A DNA stretch of 64,000 nucleotides from an uncultured delta proteobacterium. Lineage in GTDB: Bacteria; Desulfobacterota; Binatia; Binatales; Binataceae. Position numbers and translations under genes: made by a program. The notes under the pieces are model-generated. The model made no database searches, had not been told where the DNA came from, and saw only the letters and a list, made by a program, of their open reading frames with translations. Below, piece by piece: positions 22,967-56,994 of the stretch (its first letter is position 1; each line of letters begins with the position of its first letter). The stretch covers positions 33,929-97,928 of the forward strand of contig CAVOUW010000001.1 of assembly GCA_963699705.1 (NCBI GenBank). Reading direction: 5' to 3'.

Positions 22967-23059
22967 TATTTATGTAACGAACGCGAAATAATTGCATCGA
23001 TCGGGGCATGGCGCTCTGAATTCGGCGCGGTCCCGGCGAGCAAGCTGAGAGGTGACTCC

Positions 23060-25179
23060 ATGGCTGTGGAGGAAATCGGAAGGCTTCGGACAATCGCAAT
23101 CGTGGGCCAGGGCGGGACCGGCAAGACGCAGGCCGCCGACGCGATGCTCTTCACTTCAGGCGCTCGCGCCGCGGCTCGGGCGGCCCGACGACGGCTCGGC
23201 CGCGATGGACTTCGAGCCCGAAGAAACCAAGCATCACATTTCAATCAGCTCCGCGTTCAATCATCTCAACTGGAAAAAGACCGAAGTAATTTTCGCCGAC
23301 ACGCCCGGCTACACCGCGTTTCTGCCCGAGACGCTCACGACTCTGCGCGCGGTTGACGGGGTCGTGATGCTGATAAGTCCGGGCGCCGACACCAAGATCG
23401 AATCGGAAAAAATCTGGAGCGGCGACCGAAGAACTCAAGCTGCCGCGGATCGCGTTCGTCTCGCGGCTCGATCGCGAGCGCACCAGCTTCGACGCCGCGA
23501 TGAAGGATCTCGAGAAAGTTCTCGGCGCGCGCGCGGTCGCGCTGACGATTCCGATCGGCGAGGAGCTTGGCTTCAAGGGCGTCGTCGACGTACTCGCGAT
23601 GAAAGCACTGACCTACGCCGACACCAGCGGCAAATTCAAGGAAGAGGAACTGTCCGCCGACCTGAAGACCCAGGCGGAAGCGGCGCGCACCGCGTTGTTC
23701 GAGGCGGTCGCCGAGACCGACGACGCGCTGCTCGAAAAATATCTCGATAAGGGCACTCTCGACGACGCCGAAGTTCGCGCCGCGCTGCATGCGGCCGTCG
23801 TCGATCGCAAAATCACTCCCGTTTTCTGCGGCTCGGGCGCGAAAAATATCGGCATCGGCCCGCTGCTCGACGCCGTCACGACATATCTGCCCGCGCCCAA
23901 CGAGCGGCCGCCGGTGGAATGCCAAAATCCCACGACCGGCGAGCCGGTCAGCCGTCCCGCTGATCCGTCAGCGCCGCTCGCTGCGCTGGTGTTCAAGACG
24001 ATCATCGATCCGTTCGCCGGCAAGCTTTCCATCTTCCGTATCATTTCTGGCCGCGCCCAAAGCGACGGTTCGGTGCTCAACTCGACTCGCGAAACGAAGG
24101 AGCGCTTCGGTCAGTTGCTGCGGCTCGAAGGCAAGAAGCAGTCGCCCATCGCCAGCGCGATTGCCGGCGAAATTGTCGCCGTCGCCAAGCTCAAGGACAC
24201 TACCACCGGCGACACGTTGTGCGACGAGAAGGCGCCGGTGCTCGTAATGCCGCCGTTGACGCGTCCCCACGGCGTCATCTCGTTCGCGGTTCGGCCCAAG
24301 ACCAAGAGCGATGAGGAAAAGTCGTCTGCGGCGATGCAAAAGCTGATCGAGGAGGACCTCGCGCTCGAGATGCATCGCGATCCGCAAACTCACGACATCA
24401 TTCTGTCGGGCACCGGCCAGATGCATATCGAAATCACGGTCGAGAAGTTGCGTCGAAAGTTCAACGTAGACGTCGAGCTGCAAGCGCCCAAGGTTCCGTA
24501 CAAGGAAACGATCAAGGGACGCGCCGAGGCGCAGGGCAAGTACAAGCGCCAGTCCGGCGGTCGCGGCCAATACGGCGATTGCTGGCTCAAGATCGAGCCG
24601 ATGCAGCGCGGCAAGGGCTTCGAGTTCGTCGACAATATCGTCGGCGGCGTCATCCCGCGCAACTTTATTCCGTCCGTCGAAAAGGGCGTGCGCAACACGC
24701 TGCCCGACGGATTCCTGGCCGGCTACCCAATGGTGGACGTTAGAGTGACCGTCTTCGACGGCAGCTATCACGACGTCGATTCGTCGGACATGGCGTTTCA
24801 GATTGCAGCCTCGATGGGCTTCAAGGCGTGCCTGGAAAAAGCCCGGCCGATCATCCTCGAACCAATCGTCGCGATCGAAGTCGCGTGTCCCGACGAATGC
24901 ATGGGCGACGTGATCGGCGACTTGAATTCGCGCCGCGGCAAAGTCCTCGGCATGGACAGTAAGGGCAACGGCCAGGTGATCAAGGCGCAGGTCCCGATGT
25001 CGGAAGTGCTGAAGTACGCGCCCGACCTGCGCTCGATCACGTCGGGTCGCGGCTCGTTCGAGCAACACTTTTCGCACTACGAGGAGGCTCCGGCTCCGGT
25101 CGCTGAAAAAATTATCAAGGAGACGCATGCGGCGCGCGAGGCCGCCGGCGCCAAATCGCACGCCCACGCGCACGCATAA
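23060..25179 (+). CDS. Elongation factor G paralogue (EF-G2-like), apparent indels near 23170 and 23420
   Basis: GQGGTGKT, DTPGY, PKVPYKET, KRQSGGRGQYG, DGSYHDVDSS, ILEPI. Confidence 0.9.
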
Positions 25180-52510: not shown

Positions 52511-53866
52511 CTACACTTTCCTCCCGTCGTAAACAATTTCGCCGCCAACAATAGTCAGAACCGCCTTGCCCTTCAGGCGCATCCCGGTAAACGGAGTGTT
52601 GCGGCTCTTTGAAAGAAACTTTTCCGGCGCGACGGTCCATTCGAGATTCGGATCGATCAGCGTGACGTCCGCAGTCGCGCCAACCGCAAGCGTCCCAGCC
52701 TCGAGTCGCAGCAACGCCGCTGGATTAACCGACATCATCTCAATCAGGCGCGTCGGCTCTATTAACGATCGATGCACCAGTTGAAGCGCGAGCCCGAGCG
52801 CGGTCTCGAGACCGACGACTCCATTCGCCGCATGAGCGAACTCCTCTGCGCTGTCATGGTCGAGATGCGGCACCGAATGCGCCGGGCCGAAATATGCTCC
52901 GAGTTGCTCCATTCGCTTCGACTTGGGATCGTGCGGCGCATGGTCGGTAGCGATCATGTCGATAGTACCGTCCCGAATCGCAGCGAGCAGGCCTTCGACG
53001 TCGGCTTGACTTCGCAGCGGCGGGTTCATCTTCGCGTTCGGCCCCCATATCATCGCCGCGCTTTCGTCCAGGGTGAAATGATGAGGCGTCACTTCGCACG
53101 TGACCTGCGCGCCATGCCGGCGTGCGGCGCGGATGAGGTCGAGCGACTCGGGCGTCGACACGTGACAGACGTGAACCGCCGCGCCCGAACCGATCGCCAG
53201 CGCGAGATCGCGACGCACGCGCTGCGATTCCGCCGAATCCGAATAGCCACTGACCCCAAGATGCTTCGACACGGCGCCGGCGTTCAATGCTCCGTGGCAC
53301 GACAGCGCGCGATCCTCTTCGTGCAGCGCGACCGCATATCCGAGCCGCTTCGCTTCATCCAACGCGCGCGACAGAACCATCGCATTGTCGATGGGAATGC
53401 CATCGTCTGAAAACAATCGCGCCCCCGCTTCAATCATCGCAGCGAAATCCACCGGATCGATTCCGCGAAGTCCATGCGTGACTGCCGAAACCGGCACCAA
53501 CCGGGCCGAGTGGGCTTCGCGGGCGCGCTCGAGCATGTAACGCGTCGTTGCGGGATTGTCATTGACCGGCGACGTATTCGCCATCGCCGCGACGGTTGTG
53601 AATCCACCAGCCGCGGCAGCGCGCAGGCCCGTTTGGATCGTTTCCTTTTCGGGGAAGCCGGGGTCGCGCAAATGTACGTGCGGATCGATCAGGCCAGGAA
53701 CGATCCAGCATCCGCTCGCGTCAACTATAGTTGCGTCGGGCGGATTTGTCGGCGTCCCGGGTTCGACCGCTGCGATCTCGCCATCGCGCAACAACACGTC
53801 GTACTTGCCGTCGAGTGCGTTGGCGGGATCGATTACTCGACCTCCCTTGAGCAGAATCGAGTTCAA
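52511..53866 (-). CDS. pyrC: Dihydroorotase
   Basis: [35 protein letters not shown]. Confidence 0.93.
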
Positions 53867-55851
53867 TGCGCCGCCTCGGGTTCTTTCATCGGTTCGACGA
53901 TTGAATAAATTGTTACATGGTCGTGGGTTCTGGCTTTCGGATCGCTGCCGCCGGTGCCGAGGCGCACCTGGACGCGCTCGGTGCGCGAGGTCGGGATGTT
54001 CTTGCCGACATAGTTCGGCCGGATCGGGACTGCGCGATGCCCGCGATCGATCAACACCGCCAGCTTGACCGCGGCTGGACGCCCGCGCTGCCAGATTGTC
54101 GCCATCGCGCGCTGCACGGTCCATCCGCTGTTAATCACGTCGTCAACGAGGACGATCGTGCGGTCTTCGACGACGAAGGTTTCGGTGCCATCGATTGGAT
54201 GCAGCGGATCGTCCGGCTTGTACACGTCGAGAGCGGCGCACGGCGGAAAAACCTTGGTCTTGGATCCGATCAGTTCGCGTAATCGAAGCGCGAGCATCGC
54301 TCCGCGACTGACGACGCCGACGATCGAGACGCTCGGCATGTCGAGCACGTCGGCAATCACCTGGTCGGCGAGCGATTCGATCGCGCGAACCACTTCCTGC
54401 TCATTCATAATTTCGCGCTGCGGGCCGCGCTTGTAGGGTTCGTAGCCGCCTTCCTCGGCCTGCTTGACGCTGTCGAACACCGCCAGCGAACCTTCTTCGA
54501 TCCACTGGCGCACATAGCCTTGGAGGTTTTCGTCGAAGCGGTAGTAGCGATGCGAGCGCGCATGACCCACGTACTCGGTCTTCAATTCGCGTTCGCAGTA
54601 GTCGCATTTCAGCGCGAGCACGCTAGTATCCGCGCTCCGCCCGAGCGTGAAGCGCGGAGCCAGATAAGCGCCTTCGAAACGCGTGATGCAGTTCAGATTA
54701 GAGCATCGCGGCGGCGACTCGGCCTTGAAACGAATCGGCTCAGCGGTCACGCGCGGACTGGTAGAGGTGGCGGTGGCTTTTTCCATCAGCCATGCAATCA
54801 AAGCCATCCGGACCGGCACACCGGCGGCAGCTTGCTCGAAATAGACCGCGCGCGGATCGGCATCAAGCTCGTACGCAAGTTCGTTGGTCCGCGGCAACGG
54901 ATGCATCACGACGGCTTCGCTGGTGCGACTGGTGCGAAGCGCGCGCGCGTCGAAGCGGACGTACTCGCCCGCGCCGGCTTCCTTGCCCGACATGCGTTCC
55001 TTCTGCAATCGCGTCACGTAAAAGGCGTCGAGAGAGGTCGGCGGTTCGCTCGCGGGAATTTTTTGAAGCGCATCGCCCCCGGTGAAGAGCGCCATCTGAT
55101 GCGGCGCGCTGGGAGTCAGGTAGAGCGCGTCGAGCCCGCCCGCCAGCGACTTCAGCTCGTCCATCGTGACAGTCGAGAAGCTGTAATTGCGCTCGGCGGC
55201 GAGCCGCTCGAGGACGTAGTCGGGAACGTCCATGCCGCTGGTGGGTACGGCGACGATGTTCGCGCCGAAACGCGCGAGCGCATAGATGAGCGAGTGCACA
55301 GTGCGGCCGAATTTGAGATCGCCGCATAGCGCGACCGTCAGTCCCTTCAGGTGGCCCTTCTTTTTGCGCAGGATGTAGAGATCGCACAGCGTCTGAGTGG
55401 GATGCTCGCGGCTACCGTCGCCGGCGTTGAGTACCGGGCATGGCGCGTACTCGGCAGCGACGCGCGCTGCACCGTCATGCGGATGCCGCAGCACGATCAG
55501 GTCGGCATAGCCGGCGACGACGCGGACGGTGTCGGCGAGGCTCTCGCCTTTGGCGGCGGAGCTTGCCTGCATATCGGCCGAGCTGATCACGGCGCCGCCG
55601 AGGCGATGCATCGAGGACTCGAAGCTGAGACGCGTGCGGGTCGAAGGCTCGTAGAAGAGCGTCGCCATGATGAGGCCGGCGGCGGTCGTGATCTGTTCGC
55701 CGCGCTCGAGCCGGGCGGAGAAGTCGTCGGCGAGCGCAAACACGCGTTCGATGTCCGAGGTCTCGAGATCCTCGATCGAAACGACGTCAAATTTTGCCAG
55801 CCGTGACACTTTAGTATTCGGCGCGTTTTGGGTGCGCGCGTTCGACCTCAT
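53863..55851 (-). CDS. pyrB: Aspartate carbamoyltransferase fused to PyrI-like Zn domain and PyrR-like PRTase domain
   Basis: [42 protein letters not shown]; CSNLNC...CDYCE; [27 protein letters not shown]. Confidence 0.9.
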
Positions 55852-56396
55852 TTTCCGTTTGCGTTTCCAATCACGACCGCGTCTGCGCCGTCTATCTCAG
55901 TGAGCCGCACGTAAACGCGCTGGCCGCGTGGGGCCTGGATGTTCTTGCCGACGTAGTCGGCGCGAATCGGAAGCTCGCGATCGCCGCGATCGACCAGCAC
56001 CGCGAGCTGGACCGATTCCGCCCGGCCCAAATCTGAAATCGCGTCGAGTGCGGCGCGCACAGTGCGCCCTGTGTAGAGCACGTCGTCAACCAGCACGACG
56101 CGCTTGCCGTCGAGCGAGAAAGGGATGTCGCGTCCAATCAGGCGCGGGTCGCCGGGCGCTCCTTTGCCGTCATCGCGGTAGGACGAGATGTCCAGCGTGC
56201 CGACCGGAACCTGACGCTTGCCGTTGGTGCGCAACTCGTCGGCGATCCGTTCGGCAAGCGTCGCGCCGCGCCGAACGATTCCGACCAGCACGACATTGTC
56301 GGCGCCGCCGTTGCGCTCGGCGATCTCCATCGCGATTCGCTTGACGGAACGCCCGACCTGGGCAGCGTCGAGGGCGACGTTGGACGCCGCACTCAT
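55848..56396 (-). CDS. pyrR: Pyrimidine operon regulator / uracil PRTase
   Basis: [41 protein letters not shown]. Confidence 0.93.
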
Positions 56397-56406
56397 CGCG
56401 ACACCC

Positions 56407-56437
56407 AAAAAAAATCCCGGCTGCAAAAACAGCCGGG
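56407..56437 (-). terminator. Attenuator terminator in the pyr leader
   Basis: Minus strand CCCGGCTG-loop-CAGCCGGG, then A and T8, 10 nt before the pyrR ATG. Confidence 0.8.
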
Positions 56438-56465
56438 TCGGGAAACATACACTTTCATTGTCATT

Positions 56466-56496
56466 CCTTTTCGCTATCTCAGTAGCGGATTAAAGG
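56466..56496 (-). promoter_or_regulatory. PyrR-binding-loop-like RNA element
   Basis: Minus strand CCTTTAATC-CGCTA-CTGAGA-TAGCG-AAAAGG, same architecture as Bacillus PyrR binding loops. Confidence 0.75.
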
Positions 56497-56503
56497 TGAT
56501 TAG

Positions 56504-56532: not shown

Positions 56533-56657
56533 CCCCACTGCTCACAATAACGGCTGAATTTCACACAGCGCATGCATCGCTCAGCGTTTTCTTGTATAAC
56601 CTCGCATCAACCAGGAGAAGTTGCACGCAAGGGTTTCCGGTCGAAGGAGGAACGGTC

Positions 56658-56899
56658 ATGCGAAACAAGGACAGGGAGTTCGACTGCTTTTGAGGTAACC
56701 AGCAAGCGCCGAAGAGGGTACGCTTCGGAGACCGCAGTGAAGCGAGGACGTCGGTCGGTGCACGGAAATAAGGAGCTGATGGAAAAACTCGGCCGCAATG
56801 ATCTATGTCCGTGCGGTTCCGGACGGTGCTTTTAAGCGATGCTGTCTTAGCAGCGGTCGGTACGACGGATCTATCCGCAACTACTACCTTAGGGAATGA
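56658..56899 (+). CDS. SEC-C zinc-binding small protein (79 aa) read through two +1 frame changes
   Basis: SD AAGGAGG + ATG at 56658; TGC-TTT-TGA at 56685-56693 and TGC-TTT-TAA at 56827-56835; joined motif [18 protein letters not shown]. Confidence 0.75.
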
Positions 56900-56903
56900 G
56901 CAC

Positions 56904-56935
56904 AAGCGGGGCATTTCGAATGCCCCGCTTTTTTT
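56904..56935 (+). terminator. Intrinsic terminator after the SEC-C gene
   Basis: AAGCGGGGCAT-TTCGA-ATGCCCCGCTT running into a T7 tract. Confidence 0.88.
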
Positions 56936-56994
56936 GCGTCAAGCGATACGATCAGTGCAGCGTTTGCGTTCACGCTTTGCTTGGAGTTGGTCGA

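Follow-up and report, generated by a model that had tools for sequence, protein, structure and literature searches.

A small SEC-C gene spread over three reading frames

The stretch analyzed here, referred to as the window, comprises 64,000 nucleotides (nt) of DNA from an uncultured member of the Binataceae (GenBank assembly GCA_963699705.1, contig CAVOUW010000001.1, positions 33,929 to 97,928 of the forward strand), and at positions 56,658 to 56,899 it carries a small gene for a SEC-C motif protein whose predicted product is spread over three reading frames (Table 1). A first-pass annotation made from the letters of the window had described a strong Shine-Dalgarno (SD) sequence and an ATG at 56658, two +1 shifts at TTT-T, a product of 79 amino acids and a terminator, and direct reading of the sequence reproduces each of these exactly. 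The frame of the ATG holds 11 codons, the last two of them TGC TTT, before it closes at a TGA. Decoding each TTTT as a single Phe step yields a basic protein of 79 residues (P0001), in which the second segment has the core pattern ..TSKRR..SET.VKRG..KEL.EKLGRND and the first cysteine pair (Cys50, 56806-56808; Cys52, 56812-56814), and the third segment brings the second cysteine pair (56840-56845) and the tail ..SGRYDG..R.YY.RE.

The predicted product is basic, is about 80 residues long and carries a metal-binding motif of the SecA type, C-x-C-x8-C-C. P0001 scores above the Pfam SEC-C cut-off only in the shifted reading (PF02810; E value 1.3e-6, 28.6 bits, cut-off 20.4), and the match straddles the second junction, with Cys50 and Cys52 before it and Cys61 and Cys62 after it. 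The C-P-C-x8-C-C motif, in which the conserved Ser is present, is complete only past the second +1 shift, as the first-pass annotation had stated for the zinc site. Both sites read UUU-U, and the perfect re-pairing by tRNA-Phe that had been proposed for them is possible with its GAA anticodon. The gene is monocistronic, with its own terminator, and its neighbors are not conserved.

Table 1. The SEC-C gene of the window and the alignment columns at which its relatives in genomes change frame
Feature	Position in window	Strand	Genes shifting	Remark
Shine-Dalgarno-like AAGGAGG	56644..56650	+		7 nt 5' of the ATG; direct sequence reading
Segment 1	56658..56690	+		ATG (56658-56660) and 10-codon leader to the first shifting TTT (56688-56690); sequence
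Shift site 1, TTT T	56688..56693	+		0-frame TGA 56691-56693; +1 re-pairing UUU to UUU
Segment 2, 47 codons	56692..56832	+		Basic core and first half of the metal site; opens by skipping T 56691, ends TGC TTT (56830-56832); translation
SEC-C / SecA-type metal-binding motif	56794..56848	+		Residues 46-63; Pfam PF02810; split by the extra T 56833
Shift site 2, TTT T	56830..56835	+		Within the x8 spacer of C-x-C-x8-C-C; 0-frame TAA 56833-56835; sequence
Segment 3, 21 codons and stop	56834..56899	+		Codons 56834-56896, stop TGA 56897-56899; opens by skipping T 56833
Intrinsic-terminator-like hairpin and T-run	56904..56936	+		12 pairs; 5 nt past the stop
Shift column, leader end			34/39	Window site 1
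Shift column, ..RGF then NSET/PSET			4/39
Shift column, ..RGF then RT			2/39
Shift column inside the metal motif, ..RF then K.CC			35/39	Window site 2
Shift column, ..G.F then DG			10/39
Shift column, ..YYF then RE-stop			24/39

Frame changes at UUU followed by a pyrimidine

In a search of 61 genomes of the genus and class, true homologues (E value 1e-17 or better) were present in 3 of the 37 genomes of the genus (G000, G003 and G026), all at one locus after pyrR, and in 2 of the 24 other genomes of the class (G049 and G051, from two other families). The homologues of G003, G026, G049 and G051 also break frame at TTT-T or TTT-C. Both G049 and G051 have TCC TTT CGA at site 1, and G049 is in frame within the metal motif (CGT TTC AAG) and breaks eight codons on, at CGG TTT T GAC. 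A scan of one genome per species returned 99 relatives. Among the 80 best, which were retained, about 45 are members of the family, and the remainder, such as a methionine aminopeptidase, share the SEC-C motif only. A separate, independent collection, from metagenomes, contributed at least 556 relatives.

Each gene was read by a script that began at an ATG, GTG or TTG preceded by an SD-like motif, allowed an optional one-base step at each in-frame TTT followed by T or C, and retained the path most similar to P0001; the SD-like motif found before the start in 39 of 39 genome homologues is a selection rule of this script. An end-to-end homologous product of 75 to 96 residues was obtained for 39 of the 50 genome loci examined. 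Three loci were set aside despite good scores: L004 and L032 represent a single contig in which site 1 is followed by an extra base, and L034 carries a 1-nt deletion and has lost a Cys. Eight low-scoring loci were left out (L048, L050, L052, L056, L070, L073, L075 and L076); L052 conforms but its start lacks an SD-like motif, L056 is truncated at the contig end, L075 has the motif only, and L073 and L076 are degenerate.

The 39 genome genes contain 109 shifts, 58 at TTTC and 51 at TTTT, distributed as two shifts in 10 genes, three in 27 and four in 2. Phe codons at which the frame does not change are TTC (53), TTT before a purine (7) or, twice only, TTT before a pyrimidine, so that 109 of the 111 in-frame TTT-Y (Y, T or C) are places of frame change. 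From the metagenome relatives, 74 of the best 80 examined gave end-to-end products (73 distinct), with one shift in 5 genes, two in 36, three in 30 and four in 3, and no gene lacked a shift. Their 179 shifts account for 179 of 185 internal TTT-Y, the other 6 being read without a shift; a further 21 TTT stand as the final codon before the stop, where the +1 frame would add mostly R-E or R-D. The two sets together hold 288 shifts at UUU followed by U or C in 113 relatives, with one to four per gene.

The shifts of the genome set fall into six columns of the 39-gene alignment (Table 1), and genes that are in frame at a shift column carry TTC or another residue there; at the column of site 2, the four in-frame genome homologues use TTC. 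The expectation that homologues would break frame at the same Phe columns is borne out at window sites 1 and 2 for most genes, but the family uses up to six alternative Phe positions and some members are in frame. The first-pass annotation had further emphasized a matching TGC-TTT-stop context at both junctions, and this is not a property of the family. The codon 5' of the shifting TTT varies among the 39 genes (TGC, TCC, AGC, CGC, CGG, AGA, AAA, TAC and others), and the 0-frame codon 3' of it is a stop at 41 of 109 sites, CAA at 31, CGA at 14, TTT at 9 and another codon at 14, making it a sense codon at 68 of 109. This mixture arises because the corresponding +1 codons encode Glu, Lys, Asp or Arg. 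Since neither the preceding TGC nor the following stop is kept in relatives, comparison of the sequences identifies the conserved signal of the junction as UUU_Y itself and not a stop-codon sensor, and the gate sensing UGA-then-UAA termination or Cys decoding that had been envisaged for the window gene is not the common principle of the family.

Proposed mechanism of programmed frameshifting

This anatomy, its conservation, the codon rule and the protein-level selection in every shifted frame described below are very probably the outcome of programmed +1 ribosomal frameshifting at UUU_Y by P-site tRNA-Phe, which would act serially and gate expression. An in-frame UUU would occupy the P site with U or C as the next base, and peptidyl-tRNA-Phe (GAA) would slide +1 onto UUU or UUC with full pairing. 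The 0-frame codon in the A site would be a stop or, in relatives, mostly CGA or CAA, and the +1 codon one for Glu, Lys, Asp or Arg, and ribosomes that did not slip would terminate at once or within a few codons. Two slip sites would be used in the window gene and one to four in relatives, at up to six alternative Phe positions. Such a layout is the classical one for +1 slippage in the P site. We infer that the correction is probably made by the ribosome and not by an event at the level of RNA, and the serial sites would constitute a multiplicative gate that keeps the protein very low or conditional. The genome encodes 51 tRNAs by ARAGORN, including one tRNA-Phe (GAA) with a normal 7-base loop.

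Several observations weigh against this interpretation. No conserved RNA structure that could serve as a stimulator was found in the 39 genes with RNAalifold (-1.2 kcal/mol and 9 pairs, one of which has a compensatory change, in a single sequence), the 39-gene alignment has no conserved SD-like block 5' of the sites, and no Rfam family matches the gene. In-frame TTT-Y is common in the ordinary long open reading frames (ORFs) of the same genome (2468 occurrences in 326,254 codons) and the PA-X site of influenza A virus shifts at about 1.3% (passages of PMC3498833), for which reasons the bare TTT-Y motif cannot act with high efficiency. With two to four such sites in series, the yield would be very small unless a stimulator or condition raises it. 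Either this mRNA has some feature that makes slipping more efficient, or full-length protein is produced very rarely or conditionally. In this genome CGA (14% of Arg) and CAA (29% of Gln) count among the minor codons without being rare. Eight internal TTT-Y of the two sets must be read without a shift, and some breaks lie off TTT-Y, at AAG_G (L048), CTT_C at site 2 (L050) and GGG_G in a G5 run (L070), each representing either another slippery variant or an error. To these are added the extra base of G026 (L032), the 1-nt deletion and lost Cys of L034, and a fusA-like gene in the window that is broken near 23415-23425, at a place other than TTT-Y, which means that indels or pseudogenes do occur in this assembly.

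Two of these features, and one candidate element, can be described further. The CTT C at site 2 of L050 resembles the Leu slip of prfB. The G026 locus (L004/L032) is 87% identical to the window over 3.1 kb and occupies the same position, and its extra base separates site 1 from the ..TSKRR.. codons. A reading by the TTT-Y rule would run through nine unrelated codons before the frame is regained at a chance TTT C, and an error of long-read assembly may account for the extra base. A terminator-like hairpin at 56806-56825, just 5' of site 2 in the window, is not kept in relatives and was discarded as a candidate element.

An alternative that retains the full-length product is correction at the RNA level, in which one U would be lost through slippage of RNA polymerase or through editing and ribosomes would translate in the ordinary way. 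For transcriptional slippage to be productive, homopolymers of about seven or more are required, longer than the runs at the sites, which are only U3 to U4, or U3 followed by C. In addition, the presence of a 0-frame stop or minor codon directly after the Phe fits a ribosomal mechanism, and we regard correction of the RNA as quite improbable.

Selection in the shifted frames

Differences at codon positions 1, 2 and 3 among the 39 genome products are 0.19, 0.19 and 0.57 in the core, 0.35, 0.26 and 0.54 after site 2, 0.35, 0.24 and 0.59 after site 3, a further site of the relatives, and 0.35, 0.06 and 0.65 in the two-residue tail. Because third-position differences far exceed those at positions 1 and 2, there is protein-level constraint in every shifted frame. 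The leader has values of 0.59, 0.52 and 0.58, and its peptide is not conserved; its length (about 10 to 14 codons in most genes) and its final TTT are kept. Sites 1 and 2 are retained in 34 and 35 of the 39 genes, respectively, at a third-position divergence of about 0.57.

Members that are naturally in frame exist (P0002, P0005 and P0010) and are a minority. Of the called proteins that carry the family core, 253 in all, 109 end precisely at the Phe of site 3 and 44 diverge beyond it; another 77 are broken at or ahead of site 2, and only 23 stay in frame through sites 2 and 3. A quick tree of the 80-residue protein, which is weak evidence at this length, implies at least 20 changes of state by gain or loss of sites. 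Site 3 is Phe in the shifting forms versus mostly Tyr in the in-frame forms, so a substitution was needed there besides the insertion. Repeated gain and loss of sites together with this Phe/Tyr difference point to selection for the gating itself.

These data bear directly on the possibility that the family consists of decaying pseudogenes, or of frameshifts that are tolerated without a selected role. Some members do look degenerate (L034, L073 and L076) or break at non-slippery positions (L048 and L070), and the gene is patchy, being found in 3 of the 37 genus genomes searched and in 2 of 24 from elsewhere in the class. Against decay stand the third-position excess in every shifted frame across phyla, the coincidence of frame change with TTT-Y at 109 of 111 (genome) and 179 of 185 (metagenome, internal) positions, the persistence of the sites at saturating synonymous divergence, and the requirement for both a substitution and an insertion at site 3. 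We consider decay or mere tolerance very improbable.

Still less probable, and in our view extremely so, is an arrangement without any shift, in which separate small ORFs or an independently started main body are translated, or in which the real gene is the 117-codon antisense ORF at 56561..56914. The main frame of the window is open from an ATG at 56572, the corresponding ORF of G003 is annotated by NCBI as a protein (P0038), and in the window the minus strand has a frame that stays open along the full gene. However, 24 of the 39 genes have no ATG, GTG or TTG in the new frame between the upstream stop and the first site, 35 of the 39 have no such start with an SD-like motif, and both the metal motif and the gap-free alignment to in-frame proteins cross the junctions. 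The antisense frame is open over the whole gene at 10 of the 39 loci only, and an antisense gene was rejected on this ground. Finally, the near-perfect rule that TTT-Y equals Phe plus one base resembles quadruplet decoding, but we give next to no credence to a tRNA with an enlarged anticodon loop that reads UUUY as a four-base Phe codon, since ARAGORN finds no four-base-anticodon tRNA in the genome beside the single normal tRNA-Phe, the gene lies at unlinked loci in many phyla with no tRNA gene noted alongside, and ordinary genes of the genome contain thousands of in-frame TTT-Y.

Support for the extra bases

Read support for the two TTTT runs was assessed with Logan contigs (assembled contigs, not raw reads) from four soil-metagenome runs of one study, among which the source sample may be included, and at the contig level rare variants could escape detection. 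The contigs of all four runs have no gaps at 56688-56691 and 56830-56833, confirming the runs of four T that the first-pass annotation had read there. One contig (X1 record 1) covers 56560-56866, and hence both sites, with 0 other letters and 0 gaps; another (X2 record 3) covers site 1 and three more (X2 record 4, X3 record 6 and X4 record 8) cover site 2, all with 0 gaps. A variant strain (X1 record 2 and X4 record 7) has 14 and 18 substitutions, 0 gaps and both sites kept, and a T-to-C change at 56833 turns its site 2 from TTTT into TTTC. The sole indel listed among the contigs aligned to this region is at 56923, outside the gene.

The stronger argument against error, compared with the contigs, is provided by the relatives as their sequences are read here. 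P0001 aligns with the naturally in-frame P0002 over residues 11-77 at 81% identity (E value 2e-38), and because this alignment is gap free through both junctions, the pattern is more than chance. Homopolymer errors of sequencing or assembly in a gene that is truly in frame would be in keeping with the other frame-changed (fusA-like) gene of the window and with the extra base in the close relative G026 (L032), which fits no TTT-Y rule. They would not produce the 150 of 288 shifts in relatives that occur at TTTC, where there is no homopolymer length error, or the TTTC of the variant strain, or shifts in the same columns in isolates and metagenome-assembled genomes from many projects, and together with the gap-free contigs of the four runs this leaves the error explanation a practically negligible probability. 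The extra T's are neither sequencing error nor the mark of a dead gene, and the relatives, the TTTC sites and the contigs uphold the earlier preference for a programmed design over indel error.

The fusA-like gene itself, which is elongation factor G (EF-G)-like, lies at 23052-25179 on the plus strand and is split into an ORF at 23052..23750 with the GTP_EFTU part and an ORF at 23500..25179, one frame over, with EF-G domains 2, III, IV and C. The frame change, placed by eye at ..ATC TGG A GCG GCG.. near 23415-23425, represents either an assembly indel or a broken paralogue.

Distribution and genomic setting

Judged by record titles, the family spans at least nine phyla (Acidobacteriota, Verrucomicrobiota, Gemmatimonadota, Planctomycetota, Pseudomonadota, Binatota, Nitrospirota, Cyanobacteria and Actinomycetota), and its profile finds 888 cluster representatives at an E value of 1e-10 or better. 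Carriers in the genome scan belong to the Acidobacteriota, Verrucomicrobiota, Gemmatimonadota, Planctomycetota, Alpha-, Beta- and Gammaproteobacteria, Binatota, Acidimicrobiia and Candidatus Entotheonella, and three are cultured (Pelomonas caseinilytica P7, Microvirga sp. 2TAF3 and Hyphococcus aureus KCTC 62394). Identity of about 70% between phyla, together with the patchy distribution, suggests horizontal spread of the gene.

The 76 ORFs flanking the 39 loci include no recurrent family. Most loci have housekeeping neighbors, and a minority adjoin TIR, DUF4747, DUF2806, FRG or Hen1 genes (L065, L041, L066, L035, L003 and L112 being mobile or defense-type settings). Plasmids yielded a single member of the family, unannotated, on the Candidatus Manganitrophus plasmid CP114562.1 (L112), between an integrase and a SIR2 gene; the remaining plasmid matches are to the SEC-C motif of YecA-like proteins. 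The ESM Atlas model of P0010 is poor (predicted local distance difference test score 0.40), and the clusters closest to it consist of small SEC-C proteins, with mostly viral labels in two of these clusters. This viral lead was not borne out, as the phage collection returned 8 records, all below 60% identity and mostly YecA-like. Lachnospiraceae-type matches (L078-L111) share the SEC-C motif only, and L078, examined singly, is a methionine aminopeptidase with an N-terminal SEC-C motif and not a member of the family.

In the window, the pyrR leader contains a weak match to the Rfam PyrR binding site (56406-56500, minus strand; 36.9 bits, below the gathering score of 54), which occupies the intergenic region shared with the promoter side of the SEC-C gene. 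Adjoining pyrR (55848..56426) is a 662-residue ORF on the minus strand (53863-55851) that joins OTCace_N, OTCace, PyrI_C and a phosphoribosyltransferase domain in one frame, that is, aspartate carbamoyltransferase, the metal-binding domain of its regulatory chain and a phosphoribosyltransferase; a dihydroorotase-like gene (52511..54124) overlaps this ORF by about 260 nt.

The predicted protein and a possible role

Only the metal motif, of about 20 residues, resembles solved or curated proteins, namely the SecA zinc domain, YchJ and YecA. The family profile matches the C-terminal domain of YchJ (9l6b) and SecA zinc-domain peptides (1sx0, 1tm6 and 1ozb) in the metal-motif part only. The bodies of UPF0149 (YecA) and UPF0225 (YchJ) were not found in the product, where the NCBIfam matches cover the motif alone (about residues 38-64) at 21 to 30 bits against cut-offs of 140 to 158.

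SecA-like metal-binding domains (MBDs) bind zinc or iron and interact with SecB and ribosomes, according to passages of bioRxiv 10.1101/613315. On the basis of this literature, the SEC-C motif suggests that the product may bind the ribosome or another conserved partner. SecB (PF02556) was not found in five carrier genomes, G000 (96.6% complete), G003 (95), G026 (75), G049 (100) and G051 (100), and a SecB-linked role was rejected on this ground.

One speculative role, which we think unlikely as it stands, is that the gene is a self-contained sensor of reading-frame fidelity whose output is the product of two to four UUU_Y slips and whose response follows a power law. A modest rise in P-site slippage of tRNA-Phe would then raise synthesis by that power law. 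The trigger might be under-modification of A37 of the tRNA when the isoprenoid or Fe-S supply fails, and MiaA is encoded in the genome of the window; other conceivable triggers are slow release factors or slow decoding of CGA or CAA. The highly conserved, metal-binding, SecA-MBD-like product would act on ribosomes, either restoring frame keeping or halting translation, and the whole would form a feedback loop for frame maintenance similar to that of release factor 2 (RF2), in a small gene that moves between phyla.

Novelty and consequences for annotation

To our knowledge, bacterial chromosomal +1 recoding consists of essentially one site, in prfB, plus a few isolated cases. What appears new here is a small gene family in at least nine phyla whose sole conserved product would need one to four forward slips at bare UUU_Y. 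If these slips are efficient, then an unrecognized stimulator exists. If they are inefficient, then cells keep and select a protein that is completed after perhaps one in thousands to millions of initiations, and the repeated gain of sites points to selection for the gating itself. The family would be a natural multisite reporter of +1 fidelity in diverse bacteria, including cultured ones.

A search of full-text literature that is readable without subscription turned up no report of a SEC-C gene with frameshifts, nor of any bacterial gene carrying several +1 sites. The main text of the GeneTack survey (PMC3711429) does not mention the family, and its supplementary cluster lists might still bear on priority. 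The clustering threshold of that survey was a BLASTp E value of 1e-50 (PMC3711429), which an 80-residue protein cannot reach, so its clustering could not catch the family.

Public records treat fragments of the gene as whole proteins, under the names 'YecA family', 'SEC-C domain-containing' or 'nucleic acid-binding', or continue beyond a site in the wrong frame (P0038 and P0114). The misannotated pieces include P0038, P0114, P0093 and P0017. The first of these is a 118-residue read-through of the main frame in a Candidatus Binatus genome (the relative G003) that is annotated as a protein. Nostocales entries of 59 to 68 residues in the 'YecA/YgfB family' are in the wrong frame past site 2, and many public entries of 55 residues run from an internal Met to the site-3 Phe.

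Comparison with known systems

The product shares with the SecA MBD, YecA and YchJ the C-x-C-x8-C-C motif with its conserved Ser, and differs from them in that only some 20 residues are in common and the UPF0149 and UPF0225 bodies are absent. We know of no SecA, YecA or YchJ gene that is frameshifted.

The closest bacterial parallel in layout is prfB, likewise a chromosomal gene with an obligatory +1 P-site slip onto an overlapping cognate or near-cognate codon, beside the 0-frame stop that closes a short leader ORF. The prfB slippery codon is CUU_U, whereas the SEC-C gene uses UUU_Y; its stop is dispensable, it has one to four sites per gene against one in prfB, it lacks a conserved SD-like block 3 nt upstream (the prfB stimulator), and its product has no known link to termination. 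The window sites, TGC TTT TGA G and TGC TTT TAA G, are not prfB-type cassettes, and the prfB of the same genome has the canonical CTT TGA C after a 27-codon first ORF (L193 1431-1515, G000 contig C3).

Sites with the same P-site codon and direction occur in eukaryotic viruses, at UCC_UUU_CGU for PA-X of influenza A virus (in passages of PMC3498833) and at UUU_CGN in plant amalgaviruses (PMC5052127). Some relatives of the SEC-C gene have TCC TTT CGA, and CGA follows the TTT at 14 of 109 sites. The viral cases differ in having one low-efficiency site that yields a minor extra product, whereas the SEC-C shifts would be obligatory for the sole conserved product, serial, and made in a bacterial host.

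Within bacteria, UUU_Ynn is described as especially prone to +1 shifts even without a stop, with an error site in Escherichia coli argI and what appears to be such a site in the Yersinia YopN-TyeA fusion as examples (passages of PMC5009743). These are an incidental error site and a single optional fusion, respectively, in contrast to a family whose reading frame would depend on several sites. The same source lists a Euplotes gene with at least two forward shifts and mitochondrial genes with 10 and 12, which resemble the SEC-C gene in having several obligatory forward shifts inside one coding sequence. Those systems rest on lineage-wide changes in decoding or termination that affect many genes per organism, whereas the SEC-C gene is one small gene in many bacterial phyla that otherwise decode TTT-Y normally.

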